DNA of 64,000 nt from Candidatus Microgenomates bacterium (GTDB lineage Bacteria > Patescibacteriota > JACPGU01). The notes beneath the pieces were generated by a model. It was not told the DNA's origin, ran no database searches, and saw only the letters and a list, made by a program, of their open reading frames with translations. The stretch lies in NCBI GenBank assembly GCA_016188915.1, contig JACPGU010000004.1:40198-104197 (forward strand), given 5' to 3'. Below are positions 27,957-43,857 of this stretch, piece after piece. The translations under genes were made by a program, and so were the position numbers. Every line of letters starts with the position of its first letter. Within the stretch, counting starts at the first letter, position 1.

Positions 27957-27994
27957 GCCATCGTAGCTCAGTTGGTAGAGCATTTCCATGGTAA
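27957..27994 (+). pseudogene. 5' half of a split tRNA-Thr(GGT): acceptor, D-arm, and anticodon stem/loop up to ATGGTAA (attL)
   Basis: GCCATCG TA GCTC AGTTGGTA GAGC A TTTCC ATGGTAA, then unrelated island sequence. It pairs perfectly with the 3' half at 43858-43899. Confidence 0.75.
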
Positions 27995-28126
27995 TTATTT
28001 AGACGTAACAAATTCCTACCAAAATAAGGATTTTGTAAGTTACCAAAGCCACTTAATCTCTCTGATGGTTTTTTTGACGGGAATGTCTTACCAAGAAGCG
28101 ACCATCGGAAGGGAAATAAAGAAAGA

Positions 28127-28198
28127 GCCGATGTAGTTTAGCGGTAAAACGTCGCCATGGTAAGGCGAAGACCTCGGGTTCGATTCCCGACATCGGCT
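28127..28198 (+). tRNA. tRNA-Thr(GGT), island-borne replacement copy
   Basis: GCCGATG TA GTTT AGCGGTA AAAC G TCGCC ATGGTAA GGCGA AGACC TCGGG TTCGATT CCCGA CATCGGC T. Its anticodon loop is identical to the att core. Confidence 0.75.
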
Positions 28199-28233
28199 TT
28201 AGATAATAAAAGATACTGCCACCAAGGAAGGAG

Positions 28234-29139
28234 GTGGTATTTTTTATGGAGATAAAAACTCTTCTCCAAGAATTTTGTGATTATGCTCTCTATGCTCGAG
28301 GTCGGTCGAATAATACCATTAAGGGATATAGGTTTATTGCGAATCTTTTTTGTAAGGATACTGGAGTCGCCGAGATTGAAGATATTACCACCGATCTTGT
28401 TCGCAATTGGTTCTATCTAGGGAGGAAGGACAGAAAGTGGGCTCCTGCATGTTCTATTTCCTATCATAAGAACCTGACGGTTTTCTTCCGTTGGTGCCTA
28501 GACAACGGCTATCTAAAAAGCAACCCTTGCGATGATGTCGAATTACCTAAATTAGACAAGAGACTTCCTCCAAAATTAACCAAACAAGATTCTGCCAAAT
28601 TGCTAGAGTTTGTCTATAACTACCCGTATAATTATAGATTTCTGAGATTTAGGAATCATGCAATTTTTGCCACATTCATATTCGCAGGATTAAGGAAAGC
28701 CGAGCTATTAAATCTAAAATATACCGATGTTGATATCGAAAATATGTCTATTTTTATCAGACAGGGTAAGGGAAATAAAGATCGGATAGTCCCAATGTGT
28801 TATTCTCTGTCGACGATACTCAGAAAATACTTAGACGAAAGAAAACGACTACATAAAACTTGCCCCGAATTTTTCGCCTCTCTAAACCGTAATATGGGAT
28901 TTTGTGATAGTGGGCTAAGAAATCTAACCGTAAAAATGAGAGAAGAATCGGGGATTAAGTTTGGGATTCATAAATTACGCCATACCTTTGCCACCCTAAT
29001 GCTTGAAGGCGGTTGTGATATTTTCTCGCTATCAAAAATGATGGGGCATAGCGACATTAAAACAACGACCATCTATTTAGCCGCCAGCGTTGAACATCTG
29101 AGAAAGCAGATTTTGAATCACCCACTCAACAATTTATAA
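28234..29139 (+). CDS. Tyrosine-type site-specific recombinase/integrase
   Basis: C-terminal catalytic region HKLRHTFATLMLEGGCDIFSLSKMMGHSDIKTTTIYL (R..HxxR..Y signature). Lies 40 bp from attL and the island tRNA. Confidence 0.8.
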   Translation: MVFFMEIKTLLQEFCDYALYARGRSNNTIKGYRFIANLFCKDTGVAEIEDITTDLVRNWFYLGRKDRKWAPACSISYHKNLTVFFRWCLDNGYLKSNPCDDVELPKLDKRLPPKLTKQDSAKLLEFVYNYPYNYRFLRFRNHAIFATFIFAGLRKAELLNLKYTDVDIENMSIFIRQGKGNKDRIVPMCYSLSTILRKYLDERKRLHKTCPEFFASLNRNMGFCDSGLRNLTVKMREESGIKFGIHKLRHTFATLMLEGGCDIFSLSKMMGHSDIKTTTIYLAASVEHLRKQILNHPLNNL

Positions 29140-29162
29140 AATTAATCAAGAAAGGAGTTACT

Positions 29163-29732
29163 ATGAGAAAAATAGCCATATATGTGCGTGTTAGCACAGG
29201 AGAGCAGGATACGGATAATCAGATAACGCCCTTAAGCCAATATACAACCGATAGGGGCTGGGAGGTGTATAAGATATACGAAGATAAGGTCAGTGGGTCA
29301 AAAGAAGACAGAGAGGCCTTAAAAGAGCTTATGGACGATGCCCATAAGAGGAAATTTGACTGTATTATTGTTTTTAGATTTGATCGGTTCAGCCGGAGCT
29401 CCCGTCAACTTATTAATTCTCTCGATGTGTTTAAGTCACTTGGAATAGACTTCATTAGCTATCAAGAGAATATAGATACAACCACTCCAGCGGGCAAGGC
29501 GATGTTTACTATGATTTCTGCTTTTGCCGAGTTCGAGAGATCAATTATCCGTGAAAGAGTAAATGCCGGTATCGCCAAGGCTAGAGCAAGGGGCACTAAG
29601 CTAGGCAGGCCAAAAATAAAAATCGATATAGATCTACTAAAGAAATTGAAAAACAAGGGGTTGTCAATTCGCAAAATAGCCAAGGAGCTAGAAGTTCCGA
29701 AATCTACGGTGCATAGTCATCTGTGTGCGTAA
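29163..29732 (+). CDS. Small serine recombinase (resolvase/invertase family)
   Basis: MRKIAIYVRVSTGEQ (catalytic Ser motif), a resolvase core, and a C-terminal HTH (GLSIRKIAKELEVPKSTVHSHL). Confidence 0.8.
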   Translation: MRKIAIYVRVSTGEQDTDNQITPLSQYTTDRGWEVYKIYEDKVSGSKEDREALKELMDDAHKRKFDCIIVFRFDRFSRSSRQLINSLDVFKSLGIDFISYQENIDTTTPAGKAMFTMISAFAEFERSIIRERVNAGIAKARARGTKLGRPKIKIDIDLLKKLKNKGLSIRKIAKELEVPKSTVHSHLCA

Positions 29733-29920
29733 TCTGAGCTGTCCGTAAAACCATATCAAAAAGATGACAATATTGAACCTATAAAAGTTTCTCAAAAAGT
29801 TTGTACGATAAACAACTGTTTTTGGGACAACAAAAGAGGTTAGACGAATAATTATCTGTCTGGCCTTTCGGTTCTTGGTTCCATCATATTATTATCCATA
29901 GCCCACTTTCTTAGTTTTTG

Positions 29921-30076
29921 GTTTAATGGTAAATTTTAGAGGCTAAGATCGATGTTCTGTGCGATAATGTAGCCAAGATTATTATATCATTTAAATATAA
30001 GAATAAGATTGTTCGTTTTCTTAGCTTAAACAAGGAACAAAGCTTTGATTTTAGCCTCTATTTTTTACCATTAAGC
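29921..30076. repeat. 26-bp imperfect inverted repeat (22/26) flanking a 104-bp segment, just downstream of the serine recombinase
   Basis: gtttaatggtaaattttagaggctaa (29921-29946) against the reverse complement of ttagcctctattttttaccattaagc (30051-30076). The right arm overlaps the stop of the 30051-31091 CDS. Confidence 0.45.
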
Positions 30077-31091
30077 CTAGTTTTTCTATCCTCCTTAGTG
30101 CCCTTTGTTTATCCTTGTTGCTGTATTTTTCTATGGCATCCTTTTGTTGCTTCTCCCATTCGAAAAATCCCTCTCCATGCTCTATCATACTTTTGTCAAG
30201 ATTTAGTATCTGTAGCTCCACCTCTTTCTTTGTTATATCGGGGAGACCTTTAATGTAGTTGTAGAAGTGTTGGGTGTTCTCGTCTTCGTCTGCAATCTTT
30301 TCGATTGCCATCATATATTCTTTTGATAGAAGCTTACCAATCTGCTCAATTTGACTTTTTTCTAAAACAGGAAAAGGATTGTCTATCCCTGTTTTTTTAC
30401 TCCAATCGAACTTTATCGCTCCGATAGGGTATTTTAATAGGTGCAGAGTCACGACCAAAGTTGTTATTTCTCGATAAACATATAACCACTCCAATAAGGT
30501 TTTTTCTTGGAATGTCTGAAAGTTTGATTTCAGGATTCCTAGGTGGTTAGAATATCGATACCCTTTTGTGTGAACATAATTATGTAGAAGGCCTAGTTTA
30601 TTAAACCGTTCGCGAAGATTGAGCTTTTGATCAAATGTTTTAATGTTAGCGTTTGAGTATAGTATGTTCTGGATCCTATCTGCTTTCGGTGTATTTGAGT
30701 CCCAAGAGTCCTTCGACATTAGCCAATCTTTAACTGTTTTGTGCCCATCGTCGTTAATGTTGTAATAAACAGACAGCAATCCTAGTTCAAGGCTACTACG
30801 TAGTGATACGAAAGCTTGCTTATAAAAACCAAAGACCATGAGATTAAATGATATTTGTAGCTCTTCCCATGATTCTATATATGGGAAATAATGACCAGAC
30901 GAAAAATTCTCAATTGTTTGAGGTATTATGTCTCCTATGCCTTGATAAATCCACCCTACATCCTTGATCTCTTCTTTTATCTTTGGGTTTTTTAAGAAAA
31001 AAGCTTCTGTTTCCCTTAAAACAACATTACTTTTTTCCGGATCGTATGTGAACGGCATGTAATTAGCTGGGAATGGAATTGGGTTGCCCAT
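30051..31091 (-). CDS. Hypothetical protein (346 aa), stand-alone island cargo
   Basis: Intact ORF between AT-rich noncoding stretches. No motif I can assign. Confidence 0.4.
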   Translation of the reverse strand: MGNPIPFPANYMPFTYDPEKSNVVLRETEAFFLKNPKIKEEIKDVGWIYQGIGDIIPQTIENFSSGHYFPYIESWEELQISFNLMVFGFYKQAFVSLRSSLELGLLSVYYNINDDGHKTVKDWLMSKDSWDSNTPKADRIQNILYSNANIKTFDQKLNLRERFNKLGLLHNYVHTKGYRYSNHLGILKSNFQTFQEKTLLEWLYVYREITTLVVTLHLLKYPIGAIKFDWSKKTGIDNPFPVLEKSQIEQIGKLLSKEYMMAIEKIADEDENTQHFYNYIKGLPDITKKEVELQILNLDKSMIEHGEGFFEWEKQQKDAIEKYSNKDKQRALRRIEKLGLMVKNRG

Positions 31092-31390
31092 TTATAATTT
31101 GATAATCATCGTTTATTTTATACAGATACCGAATAACAACCGAATATTACTCTTTGAGAGTTCTCGCACGGCAACGGCCGAAAGGGGGCTCAAATGCGAG
31201 TGGGGTGGTTGTTTCGGAGCTTTTGTCTAGGTAGGGTTGTTCTGTAGTAAAACCCTCACGCGTTTTTAGGATGCTGAAAAAAATTCTATAATTTTTTTAA
31301 AGCATTTGTTCACTTAACAAGTGTTTTTAGAACTCTGCTTTCTTTTTACTCCTTCCTCCTCAAAACCCCGAGCGTAAGCTCGCGGGAAGC

Positions 31391-31672
31391 TTATGGTTCT
31401 GAAACCGTATCTACGGTGTCCATGCTGTCTAGAGCATATCCCATATCATCATAACTCTCCCAGGTATACCATTTTGCATCCTCTATGATGCTGTTGGCTT
31501 GTTCTATGTTGTCGTTAGCTTCACTTAACGCACTACGATACTCATCTATAGTGTCTTCCAGAGATGAATTTTGGCTTTGCAGGTCGGATATGGTGTTGTG
31601 GCTACTCCAAAGCCAAATGCCTGCTATCAATACTATAACAATGATTATCGTAGTTTCTTTTTTTTGTTCCAT
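31391..31672 (-). CDS. Small membrane-anchored coiled-coil protein with acidic C-terminus
   Basis: TM helix IIIVIVLIAGIWLW followed by a heptad-like region. Confidence 0.3.
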   Translation of the reverse strand: MEQKKETTIIIVIVLIAGIWLWSSHNTISDLQSQNSSLEDTIDEYRSALSEANDNIEQANSIIEDAKWYTWESYDDMGYALDSMDTVDTVSEP

Positions 31673-31912
31673 AGAGCTATCTATTTATTCCGTAACTTCT
31701 CGAACACACTTTATAGCTTAATTCAAGAACTGAAAGTGTACCAGCTTTTTTATTAGCTATATTAGCTAGCATTTTTTGTTACATGCAATCGTTGTAACCA
31801 TTGGTCTTATCTCAAACCAGCCAAAAAGCAAGACAAATAAAACTACCCACAAAATAGTTGTTAAGTGTTTTTTAATGGGTGTCAAAATATGCTTTATCTT
31901 CATTGTTACCTA

Positions 31913-32218
31913 TTATTTCTTTGGTAGTCGTCCACCGCTACTCAAGCAATCCGCGATAGAGTTATAGGGGGTAAAATTGGTCGTTTTCGAATAATAAGTG
32001 GTGCCTTCTCCATGGCAAATCCCCGTAGTGCTTTTTTTGACAGGAGGGTTTTCGGAGTCGCTACCACTACTAGGAATACTTTGGGTATTCTCTTGCTTGG
32101 CACTGCTATTTTTTGTACTACTTGCCCCTTTTGAATAGGCGAACACCAAACCAGCCATTACTAGGATGGCAACAACTACACCGATTATGACCCTGTATGT
32201 TGTGTTGAGCTTTACCAT
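31913..32218 (-). CDS. Small secreted/anchored protein ending in a conserved two-Cys C-terminal module (ICHGEGTTYY..FTPYN..CLSSGGRLP)
   Basis: N-terminal hydrophobic segment. The C-terminal 40 aa are nearly identical at protein level to the thermonuclease C-terminus, although the DNA has diverged. Confidence 0.45.
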   Translation of the reverse strand: MVKLNTTYRVIIGVVVAILVMAGLVFAYSKGASSTKNSSAKQENTQSIPSSGSDSENPPVKKSTTGICHGEGTTYYSKTTNFTPYNSIADCLSSGGRLPKK

Positions 32219-32445
32219 TTCTTATATCCTTTCTTGCTAGTGAAGGGGTTAAAATTACCTTTTGATGAAAAGTTATTAAACTTTTTCTTATCTGACTTTG
32301 TTTTATAATAAGGCATTACATAGGTGCCTCTCTTGGTGCTATAGCCCTTGACTCTCACATAAGCACTGGCAGAATTTGGCACAGCAAAAATCCCTATAGT
32401 CAGGATAAATAGACCCAAGACGATCGTGCCAATATATCTTTTCAT
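32212..32445 (-). CDS. Small basic secreted protein (Lys/Tyr-rich)
   Basis: Signal peptide MKRYIGTIVLGLFILTIGIFAVPNSASA, then KGYSTKRGTYVMPYYKTKSDKKK... Confidence 0.35.
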   Translation of the reverse strand: MKRYIGTIVLGLFILTIGIFAVPNSASAYVRVKGYSTKRGTYVMPYYKTKSDKKKFNNFSSKGNFNPFTSKKGYKKW

Positions 32446-32506
32446 TTTTCTCCCTTCTGATTATTTGTGGCTGTATTATACACATTAATTAGTAGAAAAG
32501 ATAGCC

Positions 32507-33469
32507 CTATCTTAACGGAAGTCTGCCTCCACTATCTAAGCATTCGTCAATAGTATTGTATGGCGTAAAGTAAATTGTTTGATTGTAATAGGTGGTTCCG
32601 GGAGCATGACAAATGCTGGTCTTACTTTTCTTTACTGGGAGTGTTGTAGTTGTAGTAGAAGGTGGGAGAGTCGGAGTTGTTGGTTGAGTAGCTGTCGGCG
32701 AACTCCCGCCAGATGTATTTTGGGTCGGAGTAGTTGCTTCTTGGGTCGTATCGCCCCCACACGCAGAGGCACTCCAAAGGCCTCTATTTGCCTCTATAGC
32801 TTGTTTCTCCGCCTCTTTGAACTCTTGTTGGTATTTGTAGGGATTGCTCTGATAGGTGTATTCATGAGCGTAGCCGTCTAGGATCATTTTTTTATTAAAG
32901 TTTGTGCCGTCTTCAAGAAAAACAAACCGCAACAATCTCCCGTATTTGTCTCTTTCGTTTTGTGTAAGGTCTTTTTCAAGACGCACTTTTTGTTCTGTAA
33001 GGATCATTTTGGCTCTGTCTGAGGCCTCTTTGCCGAAGCATTGTACTGGCTTGCGAGGATCTACCGTTTCCGGTGTGTCTATACCAACAAGCCGAATGGC
33101 TTCTAGCTTGCCACTTATCTCAACCTTGATAGTGTCGCCATCAGTAACGCTGGCTACTAGATAGAGGGTATCGTCGAGCGAAGTGGTGCTATCTTCTGCT
33201 GACTTCTCTTGCTGATTTTTACTTGCTTCTATATTTGCTTCATCCTTAGTTTGTTTTGGCTGATTAGTGTTTGTGGCACCATTGGTTGTTTTTGGAGCTG
33301 TAAGCCCAACGCCAACGAAAAACACAAAACTGGCAATACCAAAAATTAGGCCTATCGATTTTCTCGCAACACTGCCTTTCAAAATACGAGAGAAAATAGA
33401 TGGCTTAATGAGACCAGCAACCAAGGAGATTAGAGATAGGATAAACAGCAGAAAAAATACAAGAGTCAT
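32507..33469 (-). CDS. Membrane-anchored thermonuclease (staphylococcal-nuclease-like) with a Thr/Pro-rich linker and a C-terminal two-Cys module
   Basis: SNase core motifs (VTDGDTIKVE...IRLVGIDTPET...RDKYGRLLRFVF). N-terminal TM helix. Low-complexity TTPTQ..PTTPTLPPSTTTT linker. C-terminus ...SICHAPGTTYYNQTIYFTPYNTIDECLDSGGRLPLR. Confidence 0.7.
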   Translation of the reverse strand: MTLVFFLLFILSLISLVAGLIKPSIFSRILKGSVARKSIGLIFGIASFVFFVGVGLTAPKTTNGATNTNQPKQTKDEANIEASKNQQEKSAEDSTTSLDDTLYLVASVTDGDTIKVEISGKLEAIRLVGIDTPETVDPRKPVQCFGKEASDRAKMILTEQKVRLEKDLTQNERDKYGRLLRFVFLEDGTNFNKKMILDGYAHEYTYQSNPYKYQQEFKEAEKQAIEANRGLWSASACGGDTTQEATTPTQNTSGGSSPTATQPTTPTLPPSTTTTTLPVKKSKTSICHAPGTTYYNQTIYFTPYNTIDECLDSGGRLPLR

Positions 33470-33480
33470 AAGATTCGTTT

Positions 33481-33921
33481 TTATAGATAGTATTCATAAA
33501 GAAAATATCCGATGACGGCTATCAAAAATCCTATGCCAAGTATCTTCCAAATTGCTCCAACGCCATCACGCTCATTATCGGTCGTTTGATTACTTTGCGA
33601 TACTGATGTTACGGCTTGATTATTTACCTTCGCCTCTTCTTTTTTTGGCTCCGGTATCACAGGCGGAGGAGTAGGATTGACTTGTAGCTGGGGTGTAGTT
33701 GGCAATAATCTTTTTGGCTCTGTACAGCTCGGATAATATGGAGCACAAGTAGCAGAAAATGGCGTGCCATCATTACAGCCACAGGTGCCTACTCCACCAT
33801 GGTGCGAGCAACATCCAGATCGAGCATATGATGTAACCGGAATCGTGATTACAGCAACAAACATGAAAAAACTAGCGATACCTATGTTTAGACGCAATTT
33901 GTTATCGTTCTGGTTATGCAT
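33481..33921 (-). CDS. Cys-rich, Pro-rich small membrane protein
   Basis: N-terminal TM helix, CCSHHGGVGTCGCNDG...CAPYYPSC, and a C-terminal TM helix. Confidence 0.3.
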   Translation of the reverse strand: MHNQNDNKLRLNIGIASFFMFVAVITIPVTSYARSGCCSHHGGVGTCGCNDGTPFSATCAPYYPSCTEPKRLLPTTPQLQVNPTPPPVIPEPKKEEAKVNNQAVTSVSQSNQTTDNERDGVGAIWKILGIGFLIAVIGYFLYEYYL

Positions 33922-35359
33922 TTTTTAAAATAGGAATTTTGAATTCGTTTACCGCCCTGCTGATGCCTTGTTTCATTGATGTGTACATTTTCTTTAGTTT
34001 CAATATTTTCTTGTCCCACATACTTTCAATCTTAATCATAGTCTCTTTTTGGCGACCAACACTCTCATTTATAGATTTTACTTCTGCGTTTATTCTACTG
34101 ATGTTGTCCTCTGTATTTTTCTTTAATACTTCAATCTCTGGATAAAAAGTAGCATTTTGTAATATGGTTTTTTTGCTTTCCTCTAATTGAACGATCTCAT
34201 TTTTTAATCTGCTAATCTTTTTTATACACACTCTACGATGCTTAATATTGCGTAGCTTAAAAGTGATATTTAGAATAATGAGAGTTATCGTTGTAAATAG
34301 TAATTCAATAGGTGCAGTAACGTGTTGCTGTTTGAGGCCAATATGTTTCCACCAATATGTTACAAGTAGGGAAGCTGGTATTGTAAAAATCCTGAAGACT
34401 TGGTTAAAATTATGTGTAATATCAGAACTAGATGCCGACCATAAGATAGCTAAAGTGATTGCCAATATTCCTAAAGCAAAGTTGACGATCAGATAAATAG
34501 CGTAAAAAGCCTTTGCGTAGGTATTGCTATTTTTCGATACAGATGGGTATGTGAGCTCCGCAAGTAAAAGGAGGGAGATTGGGATTACTACACCAAAAAT
34601 TACACACCACATATTCAGGCTTATTTCTGAAAGCCCATAATTGATGAATACCTCTCGTGCGAGTCCAAACATTATGAATACTTCCGCAAGGAATAATATT
34701 ATGGCAGGCAAAGCTATTATAATTTTTATGATACTTTCCGACAATATACTGGACAATTCATTTTGCCTTGCAGATAACCCATGTATCTTTTGTAATAAAT
34801 CCTCCGATTCCTTACTCTTTTCCCTAAACTCTCGTTCTAGGCTCTGTATGGCGATTCGGTAATCGTCTATCTGCTTATTAATTTCGTTGATCTGTTTTTC
34901 TGCTCCGTTAATATGATCTTTATACTCTTTAGACCCCCGCAGTGTCTTTTCTCCGTTCACCATATCATCTAGTGTAGTATCAGTATCTCGCAGGAGTTGC
35001 TTTTTTCGTTCCTCAAGAGCAGAAATATTATTTCTTATCTCCTCGGATTTTCTTTTTAATATACTTTCTGCTTCTTCTATTCTTTTATCAAAATCGTAGC
35101 CTTCTAGTACAGAATTTTGTATCTCGGACGAGAATATCGGCGATAACTTTGTCGCTGATAGATTAGTATTATTTTCTGACAGGCTTCGCCAAATAGCTAT
35201 ACCGGCTCTTTTTATTTTACCCTTCGCCAATCTATATCCCCTGAATTCGTAATCAAATCTATACTTGAGAGCAAAGTATGTCTTGATTAATACAGCTATA
35301 ACTAAAACGGTTGCTAGTCCATATAGAGCCATGATGATGTTGTCTTTCTGTATGATCAT
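33914..35359 (-). CDS. Multi-TM membrane protein with long coiled-coil segments
   Basis: N-terminal TM helix, heptad-rich stretches, 4-5 central TM helices, and a C-terminal coiled coil. Separated by 2 nt from the upstream zinc-ribbon gene. Confidence 0.35.
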   Translation of the reverse strand: MIIQKDNIIMALYGLATVLVIAVLIKTYFALKYRFDYEFRGYRLAKGKIKRAGIAIWRSLSENNTNLSATKLSPIFSSEIQNSVLEGYDFDKRIEEAESILKRKSEEIRNNISALEERKKQLLRDTDTTLDDMVNGEKTLRGSKEYKDHINGAEKQINEINKQIDDYRIAIQSLEREFREKSKESEDLLQKIHGLSARQNELSSILSESIIKIIIALPAIILFLAEVFIMFGLAREVFINYGLSEISLNMWCVIFGVVIPISLLLLAELTYPSVSKNSNTYAKAFYAIYLIVNFALGILAITLAILWSASSSDITHNFNQVFRIFTIPASLLVTYWWKHIGLKQQHVTAPIELLFTTITLIILNITFKLRNIKHRRVCIKKISRLKNEIVQLEESKKTILQNATFYPEIEVLKKNTEDNISRINAEVKSINESVGRQKETMIKIESMWDKKILKLKKMYTSMKQGISRAVNEFKIPILKNA

Positions 35360-35361
35360 GA

Positions 35362-36681
35362 TTAAGAAGTTAATAGTTTATCGTAGATGGTTTTTATCTC
35401 GTCGCGACAAGCTCCGATTGATCCGCTGTCTGTTAGCCCTACGGGTATTATCTGTATACTGTATGGTTTTTGCGTAAAGTTAGCTTTTAGGTTCTGTACC
35501 TGCCATGATCCCAAATAGTAACTAGAAAAATTATCATTTTTTTGTGGGCGACTACCGCATTGCTTGCTGGAGTCTGAACTTTGATCTTGTAGGCACTGCT
35601 CATAGGTCTGTATTCTGTAAATAAATTGTGCTGATATGTAGTTTTTATATCTCGTGCAGTCAGAATAAGTGAGTCCATAAGCATAATAAGCAAAGGGAAA
35701 TTTTATGTTACCTGCAACTATCAATACGCCAGTTATGTTTTTATAGCCCCTATTCACATAACCGTTCATATATTCGTTTATTTTGGCGTAGTAATCAGTA
35801 AAATTAATATCCTCCGGCTTGTTTCCAACATCGCTAAAATAGGCTTTTATTTTTGATACGATATCTTTGTAACCATAGACCGTCATTGTCTTTTCTCTGC
35901 CATCGTCATCGTTCTGTTTGTCATTATCGATTGCATCAAATTCTATTACTTTCGTACCGTTGTGATCGTAATTAGTAATCTTCATAGATATGTTGATTTT
36001 CCTTGTCAGCTTAAGCGATTTATTAGATCCATAAACATCTAAGACCAAGCTATCATTGAACTTAAGTGGTCCCTGCTTATTAAAAATATCCGCGATAACG
36101 CTGTCTGTATCGTCATCACTTAATTTGCTAGATAGGTTTATATATGTAAGCTTGCGTTCCGCGGTTTGGCTATCAACCATCATAAACTCATCTTTGAATT
36201 CTCTATTTAAGCATTGATTGTTTTTACATGAGGCGAGAATTTTATCAACCGAAATATGAATAGGCGTTTTATTGATACTGTCGCTTTCTATTGGTACAAG
36301 ATCAAGGGACGACCCTATTTCATTTCCATTCATTTTATAGTCAAAATATTTTTCCATCCTTTTGGTAAATATGATTTTCATGGTTGTCTTGCTGTTTCCT
36401 CCGGCAAGAATAGTCCTAGCATTGTCATTTTTGTAAATGAATATCCCTCCAAGCAAAACTATCAGGATGAATATCCCGATTATAGTTGCGATAATTAATG
36501 TTTCCTTGATAGTTCCTGTCATTTTCTTACCACAATTAGAACAAAAGGAAGCTTTTTTTACCTCTTTATTACAATTACTGCATTTTATTTTCGTTTTACC
36601 CGTAACCACAGAATAACCACAGTCAACGCAAAAATTGACTCCTTCGTCTAGCTCATGACCACATTGAATACAGTTGGGCAT
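35362..36681 (-). CDS. Double-zinc-ribbon membrane protein with a large extracytoplasmic domain
   Basis: N-terminus CIQCGHE..CVDCG...CSNCNKE..CSNCGKK, one TM helix, and an extracellular region of about 330 aa. Confidence 0.4.
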   Translation of the reverse strand: MPNCIQCGHELDEGVNFCVDCGYSVVTGKTKIKCSNCNKEVKKASFCSNCGKKMTGTIKETLIIATIIGIFILIVLLGGIFIYKNDNARTILAGGNSKTTMKIIFTKRMEKYFDYKMNGNEIGSSLDLVPIESDSINKTPIHISVDKILASCKNNQCLNREFKDEFMMVDSQTAERKLTYINLSSKLSDDDTDSVIADIFNKQGPLKFNDSLVLDVYGSNKSLKLTRKINISMKITNYDHNGTKVIEFDAIDNDKQNDDDGREKTMTVYGYKDIVSKIKAYFSDVGNKPEDINFTDYYAKINEYMNGYVNRGYKNITGVLIVAGNIKFPFAYYAYGLTYSDCTRYKNYISAQFIYRIQTYEQCLQDQSSDSSKQCGSRPQKNDNFSSYYLGSWQVQNLKANFTQKPYSIQIIPVGLTDSGSIGACRDEIKTIYDKLLTS

Positions 36682-36879
36682 GCGTGTAATCTTAGATAAA
36701 ATAAGAGATTAGAGTATTGCTAAGGACTACCGTGGTTGCCATAACTCTAAGTTATACCTATGATAAGCTATTATTTAGATAATTGCAAGGCCCGGAGAGC
36801 GTAAAGGCAGATGATGCCCACAGCAATCCTATAGTTTAAGAAAAAAGCCTTTTATCCGAGTCATGATTGACGGTTTAGC

Positions 36880-37416
36880 CTAATTGTTTTGGCTATCAAG
36901 ATTTTCCAGTGCCCTTAGTGCCTCCTCTCTCTCGTATGGGTTGAACGACTGGATCGTTATAGGCTCTTTTCCTGTGATGTCAGATAACTGATGATGGCTG
37001 GTTTTAGTCACCACTAACTGATATTTTCTATCTTTACATATAATCTCGTAATCACCATTAAGGAAATCTAAAAATTCACTCAAGTCGCCTTTGTCTATCA
37101 ATGTGTGATAACTGCAATAACTTCCCTTTTCATCAATTCTTGGGCGACTTTGGATTATGATATGATTTGTCTCCATATCGCGAACAGCGAAGAATGCTCC
37201 TGTAGTTAGCCATTGCCCACAGCGATTTTCTGAAATACCGCCATAATCCTTTGGGGCGTATCGATAATACATCATCATTTTTTCTAGATCGTACCCGTTC
37301 TTAACAGACATAAGAGCGTCCCATTCTTTGCGACTAAAAACCTTAATATCATCTTGGGTATCGCCAGCCTTTTCTTCCTTATTTGGTTTCATGAGGCCTT
37401 CTTTTAGTAATAGCAA
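36880..37416 (-). CDS. Hypothetical protein (last gene of a 5-gene island operon)
   Basis: ORF overlaps the upstream gene, suggesting translational coupling. Confidence 0.3.
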   Translation of the reverse strand: MLLLKEGLMKPNKEEKAGDTQDDIKVFSRKEWDALMSVKNGYDLEKMMMYYRYAPKDYGGISENRCGQWLTTGAFFAVRDMETNHIIIQSRPRIDEKGSYCSYHTLIDKGDLSEFLDFLNGDYEIICKDRKYQLVVTKTSHHQLSDITGKEPITIQSFNPYEREEALRALENLDSQNN

Positions 37417-37705
37417 GATTGACTATGAAGATAACGCTAGCCACCACATTAAAAGTCGCCCATATTTCTCTTTGGAAGTAAAAAGAGGCGATGGGGTTAA
37501 AAATGATAGCGATAACAGCGAATATCCAAAGCCAGAGTTGATCTTTCTCCTCGTATTCACTATACGCAGAATACGCGGAGACACCACAAACTAACCATCG
37601 CAGGAACTGATAGTAGAAATACGGCCAGTGCAAAACGGCTATCAATAAAGCGATAGCCGAAATAGCCTTTAAGGTGGCTAAGTAATTGGTATCGTGTTTA
37701 TTCAT
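37379..37705 (-). CDS. Small 3-TM membrane protein
   Basis: Hydrophobic helices. ATGA start/stop overlap with the upstream gene. Confidence 0.3.
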   Translation of the reverse strand: MNKHDTNYLATLKAISAIALLIAVLHWPYFYYQFLRWLVCGVSAYSAYSEYEEKDQLWLWIFAVIAIIFNPIASFYFQREIWATFNVVASVIFIVNLAITKRRPHETK

Positions 37706-38259
37706 GAGGGCACATAGATGTTTGCTATATTAAAAAGTTCTTGCATCATGGGGATTTCTTTGTATTCAGCCAAGAGAGAGACCTGACGCGATATACCTCC
37801 CTCCCTAAACATCTCTCTGGCTTTCTTTGTTTTGCCTAAATGATGGAGAGAGCCGGCGTATAGAAAGACGATATCTGCCATCGGAAGGCCATCGAAACCA
37901 TAAGGTTGGGCACCTATTTTCATATCATGAATATCGCAAGTAAGCTTTTCGCATTTCTCATATTCGCCGAGGCAATATAGGGCAACGGCACTGAAGAAGT
38001 AGGGGAGATAAAAGTTCGGATGCTCTTTCGTCATTCCCTCCATTGCTCCCAACGCTTTTTGGAAGTTTTCTTTACTGTGATCGCGTGAAAAGGAATCCAT
38101 CACCTTAGACATCCTAATATATCCCCTGATAAGATCAGATTTATCATTTGACATAAGGGAGTTGAATATGGAGTATTGGTCTTTCTTGGCGGGCATAAGA
38201 TTATTTTTATTCTTTTTGGTTGTAATGGTTATGAGGGGAAACCAGCTCTTTATTTTCAA
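37702..38259 (-). CDS. Helical (TPR-like) hypothetical protein
   Basis: The true start is probably the internal Met near 38196. Shows an alpha-helical repeat character. Confidence 0.3.
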   Translation of the reverse strand: MKIKSWFPLITITTKKNKNNLMPAKKDQYSIFNSLMSNDKSDLIRGYIRMSKVMDSFSRDHSKENFQKALGAMEGMTKEHPNFYLPYFFSAVALYCLGEYEKCEKLTCDIHDMKIGAQPYGFDGLPMADIVFLYAGSLHHLGKTKKAREMFREGGISRQVSLLAEYKEIPMMQELFNIANIYVPS

Positions 38260-38956
38260 TAGGCCAGTTAAGCTTGTCTTCTCGCCATAGAAGAGAGCTT
38301 ATTTGGATGCCTAGATTGTTTTTCTCTTGCCCATAATCTAGGTCATCTATAACCAAAGCTCTTCCTTTTTTGTCTAATTCTTTCGTAACCTTCAGCTTGT
38401 TATCGAGCGGACTGTCCCTTTTTATTTTTTTCCTGTCTAGCCCAATCCGTGAAAAAGTAGCACCTACATTATTCGGAGCAACAGAAAAAACATTCTCATA
38501 ATCAAAGGCCAGAATTTTTCCGTCACACAAAAGATTTAAAGAATCAGAAATCATTTTCAGATATTCTTGGTTAACGTCTGACAATATCCCCATCTTCAAT
38601 CTAGGAAACTGTAGTCTGATAAAACATAATAAAGGGACTATACTTTCTCTAAAAATAATTTTCTTGTCCTTCGGCACTCCCAAAGTACCCCAAACATCCC
38701 ATAATAGATACTGATCTTTTATCTTTAAGTTTTTAAACCTCCTCTCAACATTTTCTGTAACTGATTTGCAAAAAGCTTTTTCTTCTTCAAAAATAACATC
38801 AATTAGCCCGTTTGTATATGTATCGTCCAAAGAAGGGGCATTCTTTTTTATTCTTTGTGATATTTTTTGAAATATTTGCTTGTTTACTTTTTCATCCAAA
38901 AAATCATTCCAAAAACCTTTTGGTTTTTCTTGTTTTGGTTCAAAAGACTTTCTCAT
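38207..38956 (-). CDS. Hypothetical protein with degenerate HAD-hydrolase-like motifs
   Basis: LWDVWGTLG (motif-I-like, second Asp replaced), GILSDVN (motif II-like), and ALVIDDLDYG (motif IV-like). Tentative. Confidence 0.25.
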   Translation of the reverse strand: MRKSFEPKQEKPKGFWNDFLDEKVNKQIFQKISQRIKKNAPSLDDTYTNGLIDVIFEEEKAFCKSVTENVERRFKNLKIKDQYLLWDVWGTLGVPKDKKIIFRESIVPLLCFIRLQFPRLKMGILSDVNQEYLKMISDSLNLLCDGKILAFDYENVFSVAPNNVGATFSRIGLDRKKIKRDSPLDNKLKVTKELDKKGRALVIDDLDYGQEKNNLGIQISSLLWREDKLNWPIENKELVSPHNHYNQKE

Positions 38957-38982
38957 TTATTACGCCCCACTTACCTTGCTAG

Positions 38983-39318
38983 TCATACACTTTTATTTTC
39001 TGAATAAATCATAACTCCGCCTATCAGCCCGAAAATTATCATTGAAATGAGTTCTGTCGTATTGTCGTCCATTCCCATGAATGATAGTACGGTGCCTATT
39101 ATTGGCGGAATGATAAAAAGGATTACCAATTTTATTATAGTCTGAATATGTTTTTTATGCACCCTTGTCCTTTGCTCTATTTCCTGTTTTATGCCTTCAG
39201 AACTGCGTCCCAAAGTGCACAAAGCATTGTCATTATCCCCATATTTTTTTCTCAATTCCAATAACTCTTTTAATTTTCTTTTATTCTCCGCTCCTTGTGT
39301 TTCTTCCCAGCCAAACAT
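38983..39318 (-). CDS. Small 2-TM membrane protein (first gene of the operon)
   Basis: Charged N-terminus followed by two TM helices. Confidence 0.3.
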   Translation of the reverse strand: MFGWEETQGAENKRKLKELLELRKKYGDNDNALCTLGRSSEGIKQEIEQRTRVHKKHIQTIIKLVILFIIPPIIGTVLSFMGMDDNTTELISMIIFGLIGGVMIYSENKSV

Positions 39319-39485
39319 ATTTTTGTGTAAAATAATATTTTGGATCGAACAAAGACTCCTTCGTTACGCAGATAATTAATGCCAGAAAAATCTGAAGATT
39401 CTTAAATAAAAGTTTTTGATAGGACTGCCTATACGGCATATAAGAATCAGAATCGTTGGAATAAGAACAAAGAACGGATATATTT

Positions 39486-41027
39486 TTAGCTTACTGTTAT
39501 GTTAGTCCCTGATTGTGGCTTAGTTACAGAAGGCGTATTGGTTATATTCTTAGAAGACGGACTGTTGTTGACCGGATTACTAGAGGCTTCATTTTTCACT
39601 TCAATTTGCCAGTATATTCCTAAATCTTGCATCCATGTTATCTCTTCCGTAACAGGAGTGAAATACGCCTTATAAATACCGGGATCCTTTGGTGCTCTAA
39701 TCATAAATTCAAATCTGGTATGCCAACCTGGTCTGATTTCATCATGAAGCATTGTTATAGCCCTATTACCTGACAGCCACGAATCATAGTCGTAAAACTC
39801 TGAGATATAATCTCTATGTTGACTAGAAGTTCCGAATTTTGATCCACTACCAAGTTTTATAGCATTTATGCAATCTTTATACCATGTGGCCTTGCCAGTA
39901 TTTTTTACTTCTATCCAAACATTTGCTCTTTCTCCTGGATACAAAGTTTCGGGATAAGGAGATTGTTTTATTATTTTGAAGCTATATGAAGATGGCGGAT
40001 ATTGGGGGCAGGTTTTTGTGGATTTTGGTTTACTCGTGGTAGTCACAGAATCTGTGTTACTAGTGTTGTTGCCAGTATTGGGCGTGCTATTATTTGTGTT
40101 GTCTGTAGTGTCAATTTTATTTACACAGTTATCTGTAGCCTTGTCATATGTCCCACCACCTGACCCGAGCATACATATAACGCTTTTCTGCACATCCTCT
40201 TGTGCATTATCTCCTCCCTTGGTTATTTCAATTCCATGCCAGTCATATGTTTCTTCTCCAAAAGCATATTTATACCAAAAATTTATCGTTGCCACTGGTA
40301 TAACATATCCCTCTAGTGTATATCCTATGTTTTGATCTCTGATGCCAGCACTGGTTAGGCCAATAAATTTGCCTTTTTTGTCAAAAGCCGCTCCTCCTGA
40401 GCTACCAAAACTAATTTGAGCATTGGTAACAATTGTCGGCAGTCCTTTATAGGAATAATCAAGTCTTGTTATAAATCCTTTAGCGTAGTTCATATTTCCA
40501 TTTGCATAGTCAGGAAATCCTAGCGTTTTAACTTCATCGTTAATATTCGAGCTATCTCCCAAATCATAGCCATATGTAGAAAACTTAATCGAGTCAAACT
40601 GCAACATGGTGTCACTGATAGGTATATTTGCAATGCTCTGCCATTTACCATCTGCCAACTTGTAATTTATATGAAGTATTGCTATATCAAGCTGTTCATT
40701 ATACTTGGCTGGCACTGTAACCGCCAAGCCTAGATTATGATAGGCATCTGCCAGAAAATCGCACTTGAGTGATTCGTAAGTGCTGGCTTTGTGACAGATT
40801 ACGGCCTTATAGTCGTTCGGATATTTTATTATTTTCTCTGCAACATGATAATTAGTAAGAATTGACAAGTCTGTATATACGCCAGACCCCCATTCTTGTA
40901 AGTTCCAGTTTTTATCAAAAATCTGTATTTGTACCACGGAGCGAACATTGGAATCGGTAACTTGTGCACGGACAAGATTAGGGAATGCTAGCCCGACAGC
41001 AATCATCAAAATGATTATTTTCTTCAT
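39486..41027 (-). CDS. Secreted trypsin-like (S1) serine protease with a Thr/Asn-rich linker and a C-terminal domain
   Basis: Signal peptide MKKIIILMIAVGLAFPNLVRAQ. Catalytic His (TNYHVAEK), Asp (DIAILHI) and Ser (GSSGGAAF). Confidence 0.65.
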   Translation of the reverse strand: MKKIIILMIAVGLAFPNLVRAQVTDSNVRSVVQIQIFDKNWNLQEWGSGVYTDLSILTNYHVAEKIIKYPNDYKAVICHKASTYESLKCDFLADAYHNLGLAVTVPAKYNEQLDIAILHINYKLADGKWQSIANIPISDTMLQFDSIKFSTYGYDLGDSSNINDEVKTLGFPDYANGNMNYAKGFITRLDYSYKGLPTIVTNAQISFGSSGGAAFDKKGKFIGLTSAGIRDQNIGYTLEGYVIPVATINFWYKYAFGEETYDWHGIEITKGGDNAQEDVQKSVICMLGSGGGTYDKATDNCVNKIDTTDNTNNSTPNTGNNTSNTDSVTTTSKPKSTKTCPQYPPSSYSFKIIKQSPYPETLYPGERANVWIEVKNTGKATWYKDCINAIKLGSGSKFGTSSQHRDYISEFYDYDSWLSGNRAITMLHDEIRPGWHTRFEFMIRAPKDPGIYKAYFTPVTEEITWMQDLGIYWQIEVKNEASSNPVNNSPSSKNITNTPSVTKPQSGTNITVS

Positions 41028-41069
41028 ATTTTCTTGTTACTTGTATAAAATATAAAATAAAATTTGCAA

Positions 41070-41180
41070 CAAAAAGGGTCGCCCGATACAGCGGAGTCCC
41101 TTGCGAGCCTCCATGCACACTTTCGAGTGCATACCATATGCATGATACCGATCAGACGACCGTTTATATGCATGTGGTTT
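41070..41180. other. GC-richer structured noncoding segment (candidate small RNA or regulatory hairpins)
   Basis: ATGCAC..GTGCAT hairpin, repeated CATATGCATG / TATATGCATGTGG, ending in GGTTTTTTTGACC. Sits in the 300-bp gap between divergent genes. Confidence 0.2.
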
Positions 41181-41325
41181 TTTTGACCATGCTATCAACA
41201 AATAAGCTGATAGTTTAGGTCTTTTTTACGAATTGTAGCTATATTGTAGCATGGCTAAAAAGCAATGTAAAGTATCAAGGATTTAGTGATATACTTAGAA
41301 TAGAAATATTATTTTTTGTTTTAAT

Positions 41326-41547
41326 ATGAAATATCTACTCGTGTCAGATGATAATCATAAGTACCCAGTACAGGTAATGGATGTATCACAAAGACCACCG
41401 AAATTGGTAAGAAAATTTCCTCCCGGACAGGAGGAGCAAGCAATGGAGTGGGTAACTGAACTGTATGAGAAAGAAGAGAAACAGAAAGAGCAGAAGCAAA
41501 TTACGACTAACCCCGACATCCATGGAGGCAAAGCCATTGAGAATTAG
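41326..41547 (+). CDS. Small hypothetical protein (73 aa)
   Basis: ORF only, acidic C-terminus. Overlaps the next ORF. Confidence 0.2.
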   Translation: MKYLLVSDDNHKYPVQVMDVSQRPPKLVRKFPPGQEEQAMEWVTELYEKEEKQKEQKQITTNPDIHGGKAIEN

Positions 41548-42190
41548 AAAGAATATAGCTGAAGAGACATTTCAGATCCGAGTATCTGACTTTGGCGGTA
41601 AAATCCTAAGGGGCGATCAACGCTCTGAACGGTTTGGCTACTTTACCGCAAAAGGAAATAACGGCATTTTGCAGTTTATTACTTATAGAATAGAGGTAAA
41701 TGACGATTTGCCTTCTATACACCTACATCATTCCACAGAACGAGGAAAAGTCGATTCTTTGCATTTTTCACAGGTGGATCTAGCGAAGATACCATCGTAT
41801 TTTGGTCTTCGCCCCTACCTTAGGTGCCAGCATTGTGGCGATAATGCCTTAGTCCTCTATAAGCCCTCAGGAGCTGACCAATTTCTCTGTCGCAAGAAAG
41901 AGTGTGGCAATATTACTTACGCTTCATCTAATCAAAGTAAGGCTCTCTCGGGACATATAGTGCAATTAGAGAGACTCCATAAGTTATTTGGTATGCGAGA
42001 TGAGATCTCCAAGATATTCTATCGAGGAATGATGACAAAGAAAGCCAAACGCTATATCAACTGGCAGAATAAATGGGGCATGCATGGTATTGATAAGGAG
42101 ATAGCACATTATGCTGAACAACAATATATCCACGCTCGCTCTAAAGTGCTCCAAAATATACAAAGAGAATTGTCTTCCCAGTCGATTTAG
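41465..42190 (+). CDS. Hypothetical zinc-finger protein (CQHCG...CRKKECGN)
   Basis: A CxxC...CxxxxC module. Sits just upstream of the second integrase. Start uncertain. Confidence 0.3.
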   Translation: MRKKRNRKSRSKLRLTPTSMEAKPLRIRKNIAEETFQIRVSDFGGKILRGDQRSERFGYFTAKGNNGILQFITYRIEVNDDLPSIHLHHSTERGKVDSLHFSQVDLAKIPSYFGLRPYLRCQHCGDNALVLYKPSGADQFLCRKKECGNITYASSNQSKALSGHIVQLERLHKLFGMRDEISKIFYRGMMTKKAKRYINWQNKWGMHGIDKEIAHYAEQQYIHARSKVLQNIQRELSSQSI

Positions 42191-42582
42191 CCGTTCTCTG
42201 TAGATTAAGATTCTGGCAAATATTTTATTGGCAATCTCGGTTGTGTAAAGGTGAAAAGAAACAGAATATAGTTGAGCCCAACGGACGACCTGGGGTTCTG
42301 TTGTTTTATTTTGATTAGAATTTGTGGTATTATTCTCAATAGATTTAGACAACTAAGAGCTTTTTTAGCGACATAAATGTTGTCCAAAAATGGCTCTTGC
42401 GTAATGGCTGGGACATTGCTAACATACTGGCAGAAACCGGTGCTCGAATTATGAATATGAAAACTTGAGGTGTAGTAATCTGCTTTCTTTAAGAAAGCCT
42501 CTTGCACTTCACGATTCAATTCGTAATCCGAGCTTTTTTATTATTAAGCAAGAGAGGAGGACATAGCAAACTGGTCGATAAA

Positions 42583-42658
42583 ATATGAATATAAAATTAT
42601 GAATATCTAAATATGAATATGGGAGATTTATACTATTAAAGTTAGGAGATATTCATAT
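42583..42658. repeat. Four copies of the 10-bp motif ATATGAATAT (three direct at 14-bp spacing, one inverted) directly upstream of the second integrase start
   Basis: Read at 42583, 42597 and 42611, and inverted at 42649. Candidate arm-type or operator sites. Confidence 0.5.
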
Positions 42659-42659
42659 C

Positions 42660-43607
42660 ATGACTGATAAATCAAATAAAACATTGTTGCAATGGCACGA
42701 AGAGTTTTGTAGCATGCAACAACATGTTCGTGGATTGCGACCAGCCACTATTGATAGCTTCAGGAATACTTTCAGGGTATTCTCCAAGCTAACCTCAGAA
42801 GATCTTATGCCAGGTATGCTCACTAATGCTTTGATAATTCAATTTTTTACAAAATTGAACACAAGAGAGCGGAAGGTAGGCGTTACCGTTAAATCGGGGA
42901 TAAAGACAAGCACGACGAGCACTTATTACAGTAAGCTAAAGCCATTTTTTGACTATTTGGTCAGGCAGAAAATTATTGAGATAAGTCCATTTGACGGAAT
43001 AGATAAGCCAAAAGTATCGTATGAGGACGTAAAATATCTCAAAAAAGAACAAGTAGAAAAGATATTAACAGCAATCGCTCTTAATGTTGATTGGAAAAAT
43101 GATTTCATTAAAAGCAGAAATCTTGCAATGATCCACATATTATTGTTTACAGGCATCAGAAAAGGTGAGCTGTTAAATCTTAAAGTAACTGATTTTGATT
43201 TTAATACTGGGTTAGTAAAAGTAAATGGGCAAACATCAAAATCAAAAATAGATAGAGAAGTGCCGATAAACACTCGGATCATAAAGATAATCAAAAGCTA
43301 TCTTGCTGACAGAAAGGCATCTAACTGTCCTTTTTTCTTTGTTGGAGAAAGAGGAGAGCGTTTCACCGAATCGGGGCTAAAACACCTGATTGAGAAAATT
43401 AAAGACGCAAGCAATATTAGGTTTCATATTCATCAGTTCCGACATACTTTCGCAATGAATATGGTGAACAAGGGTTGCGATATAGCCAGACTCCAATGTC
43501 TAATGGGGCACAAGGATATTAGACAAACATCCGTATATCTTCGAAAAATGCCCTCAGTTATAGTTAGAAATACGATTGAGTTACTTGATATTGATACCTT
43601 GGTGTAG
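42660..43607 (+). CDS. Tyrosine-type site-specific recombinase/integrase (second copy)
   Basis: C-terminal HQFRHTFAMNMVNKGCDIARLQCLMGHKDIRQTSVYL. N-terminal SAM-like core-binding domain. Lies 250 bp from attR. Confidence 0.8.
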   Translation: MTDKSNKTLLQWHEEFCSMQQHVRGLRPATIDSFRNTFRVFSKLTSEDLMPGMLTNALIIQFFTKLNTRERKVGVTVKSGIKTSTTSTYYSKLKPFFDYLVRQKIIEISPFDGIDKPKVSYEDVKYLKKEQVEKILTAIALNVDWKNDFIKSRNLAMIHILLFTGIRKGELLNLKVTDFDFNTGLVKVNGQTSKSKIDREVPINTRIIKIIKSYLADRKASNCPFFFVGERGERFTESGLKHLIEKIKDASNIRFHIHQFRHTFAMNMVNKGCDIARLQCLMGHKDIRQTSVYLRKMPSVIVRNTIELLDIDTLV

Positions 43608-43621
43608 AGCAATAAAGGTCA

Positions 43622-43740
43622 TTTAAAGGATTGATGTCGGGAAGTGCTTATGATAAGATATAAAGAACAATATCAGTAAAATATTAATAAGCGATAGCGG
43701 TATCAATCCTTTATGGCCTTTGAGCTATTAAAGGATTTTA
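43622..43740. repeat. Three copies of TAAAGGATT (one inverted) between int2 and attR. A similar AAGGATTTT occurs next to attL at 28021.
   Basis: tttaaaggattgat, atcaatcctttat and ttaaaggatttta. Candidate integrase or excisionase arm sites. Confidence 0.4.
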
Positions 43741-43857
43741 TTATCAAAGATAGAGGAATAAGAACAGGTCACCGGCTACTATCGGCCAAGTGGTCAAAAA
43801 TATGAAGTCCGTGCCTATACAGAGCCAAGAACGCGAGAAGATGGGTAGACCTCATAA

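Follow-up and report, generated by a model that had tools for sequence, protein, structure and literature searches.

A predicted surface nuclease and a small exported protein share a two-cysteine, sunset-like module on an integrative element of a Candidatus Microgenomates bacterium

Nucleases of the staphylococcal nuclease (SNase) family are the closest described relatives of the enzyme considered here. They include Nuc of Staphylococcus aureus, its surface-attached counterpart Nuc2, and YokF, encoded by the Bacillus subtilis mobile element SPbeta. Patescibacteria lack the ability to synthesise nucleotides and presumably subsist on scavenged nucleic acids, and their DNA-capturing surface machinery is poorly defined. 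Secreted SNc-type nucleases have already been surveyed in these bacteria, and a role in nucleobase salvage was proposed for them (PMC11495043). The present analysis deals with a stretch of 64,000 nucleotides (nt), hereafter the window, of contig JACPGU010000004.1, which belongs to a metagenome-assembled genome (MAG) of Candidatus Microgenomates (Patescibacteria). Its subject is a block of six minus-strand genes running from position 36681 down to 31913 and carried by a 15.9-kb integrative element (about 27988-43864; Table 1). The open reading frames lie exactly where an earlier note, made from the letters of this DNA, had placed them, and the public gene calls agree. The fourth gene encodes an SNase enzyme and the last a protein of 101 amino acids (aa), and these two would form the functional core of the block.

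On balance, we lean towards viewing the locus as a tethered surface nuclease equipped with a DNA-binding domain on a flexible linker, accompanied by a stand-alone copy of that domain, all on an integrative element. In this scenario, a two-helix hairpin would hold the SNase enzyme at the outer face of the membrane, and a 44-residue module at the end of a Thr/Pro linker would catch extracellular DNA and feed it to the catalytic domain, much as a carbohydrate-binding module does on a glycosidase. The 101-aa protein, made of anchor, linker and the same module, would act as a surface DNA-binding protein with a ComEA-like architecture. The likely payoff would be a supply of oligonucleotides and nucleotides to a cell unable to synthesise them. 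The remaining four genes would correspond to lineage-specific cargo, co-oriented and closely spaced, and not demonstrably linked to the nuclease.

The resemblance between the C-termini of the two proteins, and the protein-level selection that the earlier note had deduced from it, were both confirmed. The two copies of the module are identical at 29 of 44 aa and at 81 of 132 nt, with 22 of the 29 identical residues being encoded by different codons. When the six-frame translation of the window was searched with a profile of the family, exactly these two copies were retrieved (E-values of 8e-24 for copy 2 and 8e-22 for copy 1), the next-best match having an E-value of 0.18. Both end zero to one residue before the stop codon.

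As the note had recommended, the module was also sought elsewhere. An exhaustive search of 1.84 billion cluster representatives with a profile hidden Markov model returned 917 matches at E<=1e-3, 563 of them at E<=1e-10, in proteins that public records name hypothetical. The family ranges from the monoderm-like Patescibacteria to Proteobacteria such as Limnohabitans. In the top-scoring set of 158 proteins, the module lies at most 5 residues from the C-terminus in 144, and occurs once in 117, twice in 36 and three times in 5. Two cysteines stand out among the 302 unique instances, Cys12 being kept in 301 and Cys35 in 300, together with the first Lys (295) and His13 (294). The modules are basic, with a net charge of +2.7 on average and a median pI of 8.9, and an N-terminal hydrophobic segment is present in 234 of 263 family proteins. 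AlphaFold2, run on the 44-aa module with a 62-sequence alignment, produced a beta-beta-beta-alpha fold with a mean confidence (predicted local distance difference test, pLDDT) of 95.4. A decayed copy without start codon was found in Vibrio phage vB_ValM-yong1 (NC_049477.1, 3582-3704; locus L086, 3001-3123), where it sits between a hypothetical gene and that of a P2-like phage integrase. Selenocysteine at its Cys1 position was considered and rejected, the stop codon there being TAA, so that the copy is taken as decayed.

The earlier note could not place the module in any family and regarded it as novel, a view that has to be abandoned. Besides having 917 representatives, the module is homologous to the sunset domain of NCBIfam (NF051437) and constitutes the C-terminus of PHROG 37565 (E ~1e-17, and 3e-17 for copy 2). 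The curated sunset model by itself barely detects it. The nuclease copy scored 12.3-12.6 bits (E 0.11-0.13), short of the curated cut-off of 27, the copy of the 101-aa protein gave no match to NF051437, and nine more family members reached at most 22.2 bits. Among 62 diverse instances, 26 match NF051437 at E<=1 (best E 7.8e-7), with weaker matches to the sunset-variant models of ribosomal proteins L20, L17, L4 and S2 and of ArfC. A bona fide sunset domain is found at the C-terminus of gp33 of Clostridium phage phiCT19406A (YP_009277307.1), which scores 56.5 bits over positions 1-42 of the 42 of NF051437. Aligned to this domain with hhalign, the module profile gave a probability of 94.4% and an E-value of 8.6e-8 over 41 columns with 39% identity. 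In this alignment, the first module Cys falls on a sunset Tyr (I-C-H versus I-Y-H) and the second on the Ala of E-E-A, while the His, PG, YY, Thr and G-x-R-x-P are common to both. As far as sequence comparison can tell, the module is thus a two-cysteine branch of the sunset superfamily missed by the curated model. The possibility raised in the note that it would turn out to match a known sorting or anchor domain was borne out in part: the domain does have a name, but it is not a sorting or anchor signal. Pfam gave no match at E up to 10 for the two window modules or the 62 family instances, and neither did PDB sequences for the module profile, also at E up to 10. The gp33 gene (locus L092, 1162-1635) lies between those of the portal and of a 'pilot protein for DNA ejection', a curious site for a putative DNA-binding membrane protein.

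A clue for the function of the module is given by the company it keeps. In the 76 module-family proteins with a length of 160 aa or more, an SNase domain is present in 23, a GmrSD_C domain (an HNH-type nuclease) in 4 and a G5 domain in 9, the rest being without domain, and a regular-expression scan added about 7 module proteins of another HNH type ('YExDH..LE.GG'). About 45% of the larger module proteins are secreted nucleases, which belong to three unrelated types. The order of the parts varies, with the module placed after SNase, after or before GmrSD_C, or in tandem arrays. For one accessory domain to accompany three unrelated nuclease folds, changing in placement and in number of copies, is typical of substrate-binding modules.

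The same association can be seen between neighbouring genes. In locus L081, the gene for a 72-aa protein consisting of a signal peptide and the module shares 4 nt with the end of the gene for a secreted HNH nuclease, of the type fused to the module elsewhere. Right after these two genes, positions 5275-5529 encode an 84-aa secreted protein with a weakly sunset-like C-terminus (SGVFHFKGQRWYGNTKKGAFVCQKEAVQEGSR; 15.2 bits with NF051437), meaning that two small paralogues, apparently both of sunset type, stand beside one nuclease. In locus L008, from Peregrinibacteria, the gene of a nuclease with module is overlapped by that of a 100-aa lipoprotein with module (8716-9018). These genes belong to an element (2337-13721) that adjoins a tRNA-Lys and carries two integrases, one of them 46% identical to that of the window, and which looks like a relative of the window element with a different cargo. 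It also encodes a 705-aa protein, possibly primase-like as judged by eye, and a downstream protein ending in the Excalibur-like DKNKDGVACE.

The nuclease partners, the neighbours in L081 and L008, the basic charge and the occurrence of sunset domains on ribosomal proteins led us to propose, with moderate confidence, that the module may bind DNA (nucleic acid), its resemblance to the DNA-repair protein Ada counting as a lead only. Since the Cys pair replaces two core residues in exported proteins, it would probably form a structural disulfide stabilising this mini-domain outside the cell. A broader version is put forward tentatively, as a possible and somewhat doubtful one: the two-Cys sunset would be a disulfide-locked extracellular DNA-binding module for three nuclease folds, its stand-alone form would be a surface DNA receptor for uptake or scavenging, and elements would carry the pair to control arriving DNA. 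If this broader version were true, the whole sunset superfamily, including the ribosomal variants, would be nucleic-acid binding and evolutionarily tied to the phosphotriester-repair domain of Ada. DNA binding, if true, would be the first function for the sunset domain and would provide a handle to find extracellular DNA-processing proteins in uncultivated bacteria. Within Patescibacteria, the locus points to a compact 44-residue domain as a candidate part of the DNA-capturing surface machinery.

The nuclease itself (MBI2448626.1, recorded as 'thermonuclease family protein') matches PF00565 over residues 125-233 with 92.0 bits (gathering threshold 21; E 4.1e-26), and solved S. aureus nuclease chains align to it with an E-value of 9e-18. 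The claim that its catalytic core is intact withstood careful alignment, since all catalytic and Ca-ligand residues are present and none is substituted. According to the phmmer alignment to chain 2f0u_A, complemented by sequence inspection, D112, R126, D131, T132, E134, K175, Y176, R178, Y204 and Y206 correspond to D21, R35, D40, T41, E43, K84, Y85, R87, Y113 and Y115 of the S. aureus enzyme. Assignment to the NucI equivalog (NCBIfam NF047694) was discarded, as the score of 122.9 bits stays below the curated cut-off of 250 and indicates a related nuclease only. The two hydrophobic helices of the N-terminal hairpin are connected by a Lys/Arg-rich loop (KPSIFSRILKGSVARKS), and according to the positive-inside rule the rest of the protein would therefore be placed outside the membrane. 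Hydropathy thus agrees with the membrane-anchored enzyme announced in the note, with the catalytic domain predicted to be outside. The same hairpin is found in homologues, including HNH protein P0119 and P0043. The AlphaFold2 model, built with 22 homologues, shows helices at residues 2-30 and 36-56, a disordered spacer (62-96, pLDDT < 50), an SNase domain with pLDDT mostly between 84 and 98 (means of 10-residue blocks, residues 101-240), a disordered Thr/Pro linker (249-274, pLDDT < 50) and the C-terminal module (> 90). A second Cys pair, which is not present in the S. aureus nuclease, lies in the SNase domain: across the 22 homologues C144 never varies and conservation of C237 reaches at least 90%, which suggests a putative extra disulfide of this exported SNase clade. 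Together with the N-terminal segments of the module family, this pair fits an exported, oxidised protein.

A search of the genome collection revealed relatives of the nuclease at 257 places, 80 of which were kept for neighbourhood comparison. These 80 loci are mostly from Patescibacteria MAGs, some being labelled Gammaproteobacteria or Desulfobulbaceae. The nucleotide-scavenging idea of the earlier note coincides with a published hypothesis on the SNc-type nucleases that Patescibacteria secrete (PMC11495043). Both the enzyme, an ordinary member of its family, and the role proposed for it are of an already known kind.

Several observations weigh against a DNA-capturing role of the module. Only 10 of the 80 nuclease homologues carry it, and it is therefore dispensable for this nuclease family. 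Nine module proteins present a G5 domain and no nuclease, many carriers are without an enzyme, about one third of the larger ones showing no recognisable partner domain, and several stand-alone copies are found in nuclease-free contexts. The module disulfide is itself inferred, and a literature search for 'sunset domain' found nothing relevant. Regarding Ada, the sole Foldseek match of the module in PDB was the N-terminal domain of this protein (N-Ada, 1wpk), with a non-significant E-value of 4.4 and a TM-score of 0.53 normalised to the query. The BFVD matches, which include two entries named 'Metal binding domain of Ada' and one 'DNA methyl phosphotriester repair domain', are individually non-significant as well (E at least 0.34). 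With hhalign, module and N-Ada matched only at E 0.3, in a plausible register (YFTPYNTIDECLDSGGR / NVSFYANASEALAAGFR) that puts Cys34 on Ala61. The Ada metal-binding family (PF02805) matched neither the window copies nor the 62 family instances in the Pfam search at E up to 10, and BLASTP between a canonical sunset domain and N-Ada gave no meaningful match. Zinc is held in N-Ada by Cys38, Cys42, Cys69 and Cys72; these four ligands are not kept in the module, which has two Cys at other positions. Homology to Ada is left unestablished by hhalign and BLASTP, and the resemblance was retained as a fold-level lead only.

Some of these points would also suit a module that serves for attachment or protein-protein contacts, be it to an envelope polymer, to pili or to the surface of a host cell, in which case its link to nucleases would merely reflect shared surface display. 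The nine G5 fusions invite this explanation, G5 being typical of cell-surface proteins, and so do the C-terminal position in 144 of 158 proteins, the many carriers reduced to anchor, linker and module without any enzyme, and the stand-alone copies among small secreted proteins and adhesin-like genes. It is nonetheless held to be unlikely: the carriers are already anchored at their N-terminus, the monoderm-like Patescibacteria and Proteobacteria such as Limnohabitans have no common envelope polymer, the three nuclease folds and the tandem arrays are typical of substrate-binding modules, and sunset domains are also present on cytoplasmic ribosomal proteins.

A comparably low probability is given to a nuclease working for the element rather than for the cell, by destroying incoming DNA at the surface, lowering transformation and blocking removal of the element by recombination, with the module protein as a modulator. 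Prophage-encoded DNases of Campylobacter jejuni have been reported to lower natural transformation, and a 2023 paper in Cell is said to describe Patescibacteria as naturally competent. In line with such a role, the pair of nuclease and module protein is found on two integrase-bearing elements from different lineages of the Candidate Phyla Radiation (CPR), those of the window and of L008; the module and the 77-aa protein of the block belong to PHROG families; the SNase gene yokF resides on SPbeta-type prophages; and the SNase domain alone matches the PADLOC candidate defence protein C3a212 'SNc+LTD' (E 4.5e-44). Against it, relatives of the nuclease are spread over the 257 places mentioned above, with most kept loci being Patescibacteria MAGs, and an integrase homologue occurs within ~8 kb in just 5 of the 80. 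This broad spread with few nearby integrases fits housekeeping scavenging. The exclusion and scavenging roles are mutually compatible, and the present data do not separate the two.

Finally, a metal site (Zn or Cu) or redox-active centre formed by Cys-His...Cys, in the manner of the Zn(Cys)4 of Ada, is very improbable as a substitute for the disulfide. It would suit the near-invariance of Cys12, His13 and Cys35, the extra Cys of some members (e.g. in ICHCPG and GRCPKRD motifs) and the fact that N-Ada, whose fold is the nearest among solved ones, binds zinc. Against it, the bona fide sunset domain has Tyr and Ala where the module has its two Cys, and these are core positions rather than metal ligands, the His is common to Cys-free sunset domains, the side chains of Cys12 and His13, adjacent on a beta-strand, should face opposite ways, and PF02805 gives no match.

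As for the block as a whole, successive genes are separated by a gap of 2 nt, an overlap of 8 nt, gaps of 11 and 61 nt, and an overlap of 7 nt. The tight spacing described in the note (2-11 nt) is therefore correct for four junctions and wrong for the one between the nuclease and the 77-aa protein genes (61 nt). The non-coding flanks (198 nt upstream, 240 nt downstream) fit a separate transcription unit, and simple promoter and terminator scans of the block performed no better than on shuffled sequence. The notion that the six genes make up one functional system found no support: no homologue of the zinc-ribbon or of the coiled-coil protein turned up in the 80 nuclease loci or in viral contigs, which rules out a conserved six-gene operon, and a search of 5.8 billion proteins with the ectodomain of the former retrieved nothing but itself. 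What recurs elsewhere is the pair of nuclease and small module protein alone. A known anti-phage defence system was likewise ruled out, since PADLOC gave no several-protein match to one system, the matches other than that of the SNase domain being coiled-coil noise (E > 0.002). Recognition of a prophage was also rejected, PHROG matches being confined to the nuclease, the module and the 77-aa protein.

The product of the first gene of the block has a double zinc ribbon in its N-terminal part (PF12773, 29.9 bits versus a cut-off of 27.3) and, by hydropathy, one transmembrane-like segment (residues 54-86), as anticipated in the note; the part beyond the membrane, which would lie outside, comprises about 355 residues instead of the 330 given there. 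This ectodomain (35365-36429, minus strand) is a true ORFan on a mobile element. The 481-aa protein shows, in agreement with its hydropathy, an N-terminal transmembrane segment, a coiled coil at about aa 85-210 and a block of several transmembrane segments at about aa 200-370, followed by another coiled coil, and gave only sub-threshold matches of coiled-coil type (DUF4349, DUF4407, SMC-like). The 146-aa protein contains 6 Cys and starts with a hydrophobic segment, followed by the motif SGCCSHHGGVGTCGCNDGT..SATC....SC, a linker rich in Pro and a C-terminal transmembrane segment. It belongs to no Pfam or NCBIfam family and has the pattern SGCCS(H/W)HGGVG.C...DGT.S..C in common with a 300-aa secreted CPR protein (locus L060, 12651-13553). 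The 77-aa protein is secreted and very basic (pI 10.4); its signal peptide ends in ASA, and its mature motif reads RVKGY..K.GTYV.P.YKT.....KF.NFS.KGN.NP(F/Y)T.KKG. It matches PHROG 29674 (phrog_29674, E 7.6e-16) and no Pfam or NCBIfam family, has one homologue among the examined loci (L010, 3184-3438) and, by tblastn, none in the phage genomes of INPHARED. The 101-aa protein, identical to HYV44_03685 of Candidatus Microgenomates, starts with a hydrophobic anchor or signal (residues 1-33), followed by a Ser/Asn-rich linker and the module. Just downstream of the block, positions 31391-31672 (minus strand) encode a 93-aa protein with transmembrane segment and coiled coil that matches DUF2570 (29.2 bits versus a Pfam threshold of 26.6), a family found mostly in phages.

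The location of these genes on a mobile element, as claimed in the note, was corroborated by the host tRNA-Thr(GGT), which is split at 27988 and 43858. The joined halves restore a tRNA of 73 nt that is recognised by ARAGORN as tRNA-Thr(ggt), and the 7-nt core ATGGTAA is present at both junctions. Split tRNA and repeated core, together with two PF00589 integrases and a PF00239 resolvase, characterise a tRNA-targeting integrative element. Its G+C content is that of the flanks, and its cargo consists mostly of exported proteins, including a trypsin-like protease. Insertion took place inside the anticodon loop and not at the usual 3' end of the tRNA, and the element brings its own intact tRNA-Thr(GGT), of different sequence, which also contains the core ATGGTAA in its anticodon loop (at 28157). 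A LOOT RNA (Rfam RF03000, 68.5 bits versus a gathering score of 46.4) lies inside the element at 41093-41221 (minus strand), directly upstream of the trypsin-like protease gene, which is the first of a long minus-strand gene array. Beyond the right end, tRNA-like fragments (43901-43972 and 44048-44103) bracket an intact tRNA-Thr(TGT) (43973-44045), one being a 5' piece with the acceptor GCCACCT and the other a 3' piece ending in AGGTGGCT. They look as if left by an older nested insertion, and ARAGORN yielded no unique reconstruction from them.

Table 1. Positions in the window of the six-gene block, of the module copies and nuclease parts, and of the landmarks of the integrative element
Feature	Position	Strand	Description
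Left end of the element	27957-27994	+	tRNA-Thr(GGT) 5' half to anticodon loop; core ATGGTAA at 27988-27994
Replacement tRNA-Thr(GGT)	28126-28199	+	ARAGORN, Rfam
Tyrosine integrase	28234-29139	+	PF00589, E 1e-27
Serine recombinase	29163-29732	+	PF00239, E 1e-46
Small module protein	31913-32218	-	101 aa
Module copy 2	31916-32050	-	Residues 57-101 of the 101-aa protein
Lys/Tyr-rich basic protein	32212-32445	-	77 aa
Thermonuclease	32507-33469	-	320 aa
Module copy 1	32510-32641	-	Nuclease residues 277-320, LPVKKSKTSICHAPGTTYYNQTIYFTPYNTIDECLDSGGRLPLR
SNase catalytic domain	32735-33172	-	Nuclease residues ~100-245; alignment to S. aureus structures
Two-helix hairpin	33299-33469	-	Nuclease residues 1-57; hydropathy and AlphaFold2
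Cys/Pro-rich protein	33481-33921	-	146 aa
Coiled-coil membrane protein	33914-35359	-	481 aa
Zinc-ribbon protein	35362-36681	-	439 aa
Second tyrosine integrase, near right end	42660-43607	+	PF00589, E 1e-35
Right end of the element	43858-43899	+	Core ATGGTAA, then tRNA-Thr(GGT) 3' half

Compared with described systems, the window nuclease has all catalytic and Ca-binding residues in common with S. aureus Nuc, and with Nuc2 a membrane-anchored extracellular layout, predicted in the present case. It differs from Nuc and the surface-attached Nuc2/NucI in its hairpin anchor, the extra C144/C237 pair, the long Thr/Pro linker and the sunset-type C-terminus. YokF of SPbeta (and YncB) is likewise an SNase-family enzyme of B. 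subtilis on an integrated mobile element, with 33% tblastn identity to residues 27-233 of the window nuclease; these proteins come from another phylum and have other accessory regions, with no sunset-type module detected. No phage record covered at least 80% of the nuclease in tblastn searches, the best reaching 65% (residues 27-233). An SNase on a mobile element thus has a precedent in SPbeta yokF and is ordinary.

The N-terminal domain of Escherichia coli Ada (PF02805; 1wpk, 1adn, 1zgw) is itself small and contacts the DNA backbone; the module differs in having no significant sequence match to it, none of its Zn-ligand Cys and no sign of methyl transfer. With ComEA, the 101-aa protein has only the architecture in common, that is, an anchor, a flexible linker and a small C-terminal domain for which DNA binding is proposed; ComEA uses a helix-hairpin-helix, which bears no sequence or fold relation to the module. 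The sunset domain is closer. NF051437 and the module have a length of ~42-45 residues, a C-terminal position and the order (V/I)K..S..I-x-H-xPG..YY..T...(F/Y)..(I/L)..x...G.R.P in common, and gp33 resembles the nuclease in its transmembrane hairpin, linker and C-terminal domain. The module departs from NF051437 by its invariant Cys pair in place of Tyr and Ala, a loop 3 residues shorter, SGGRLPK(R/K) instead of AGYRxPK, and exported carriers, and it scores below the cut-off, so that it was left unnamed. Having no Pfam model and falling below the NCBIfam cut-off, it was overlooked by annotation in at least 917 protein clusters. Judged by these comparisons, the module is not a new family and is best described as an unannotated, widespread two-cysteine variant of the sunset domain, strongly associated with secreted nucleases.

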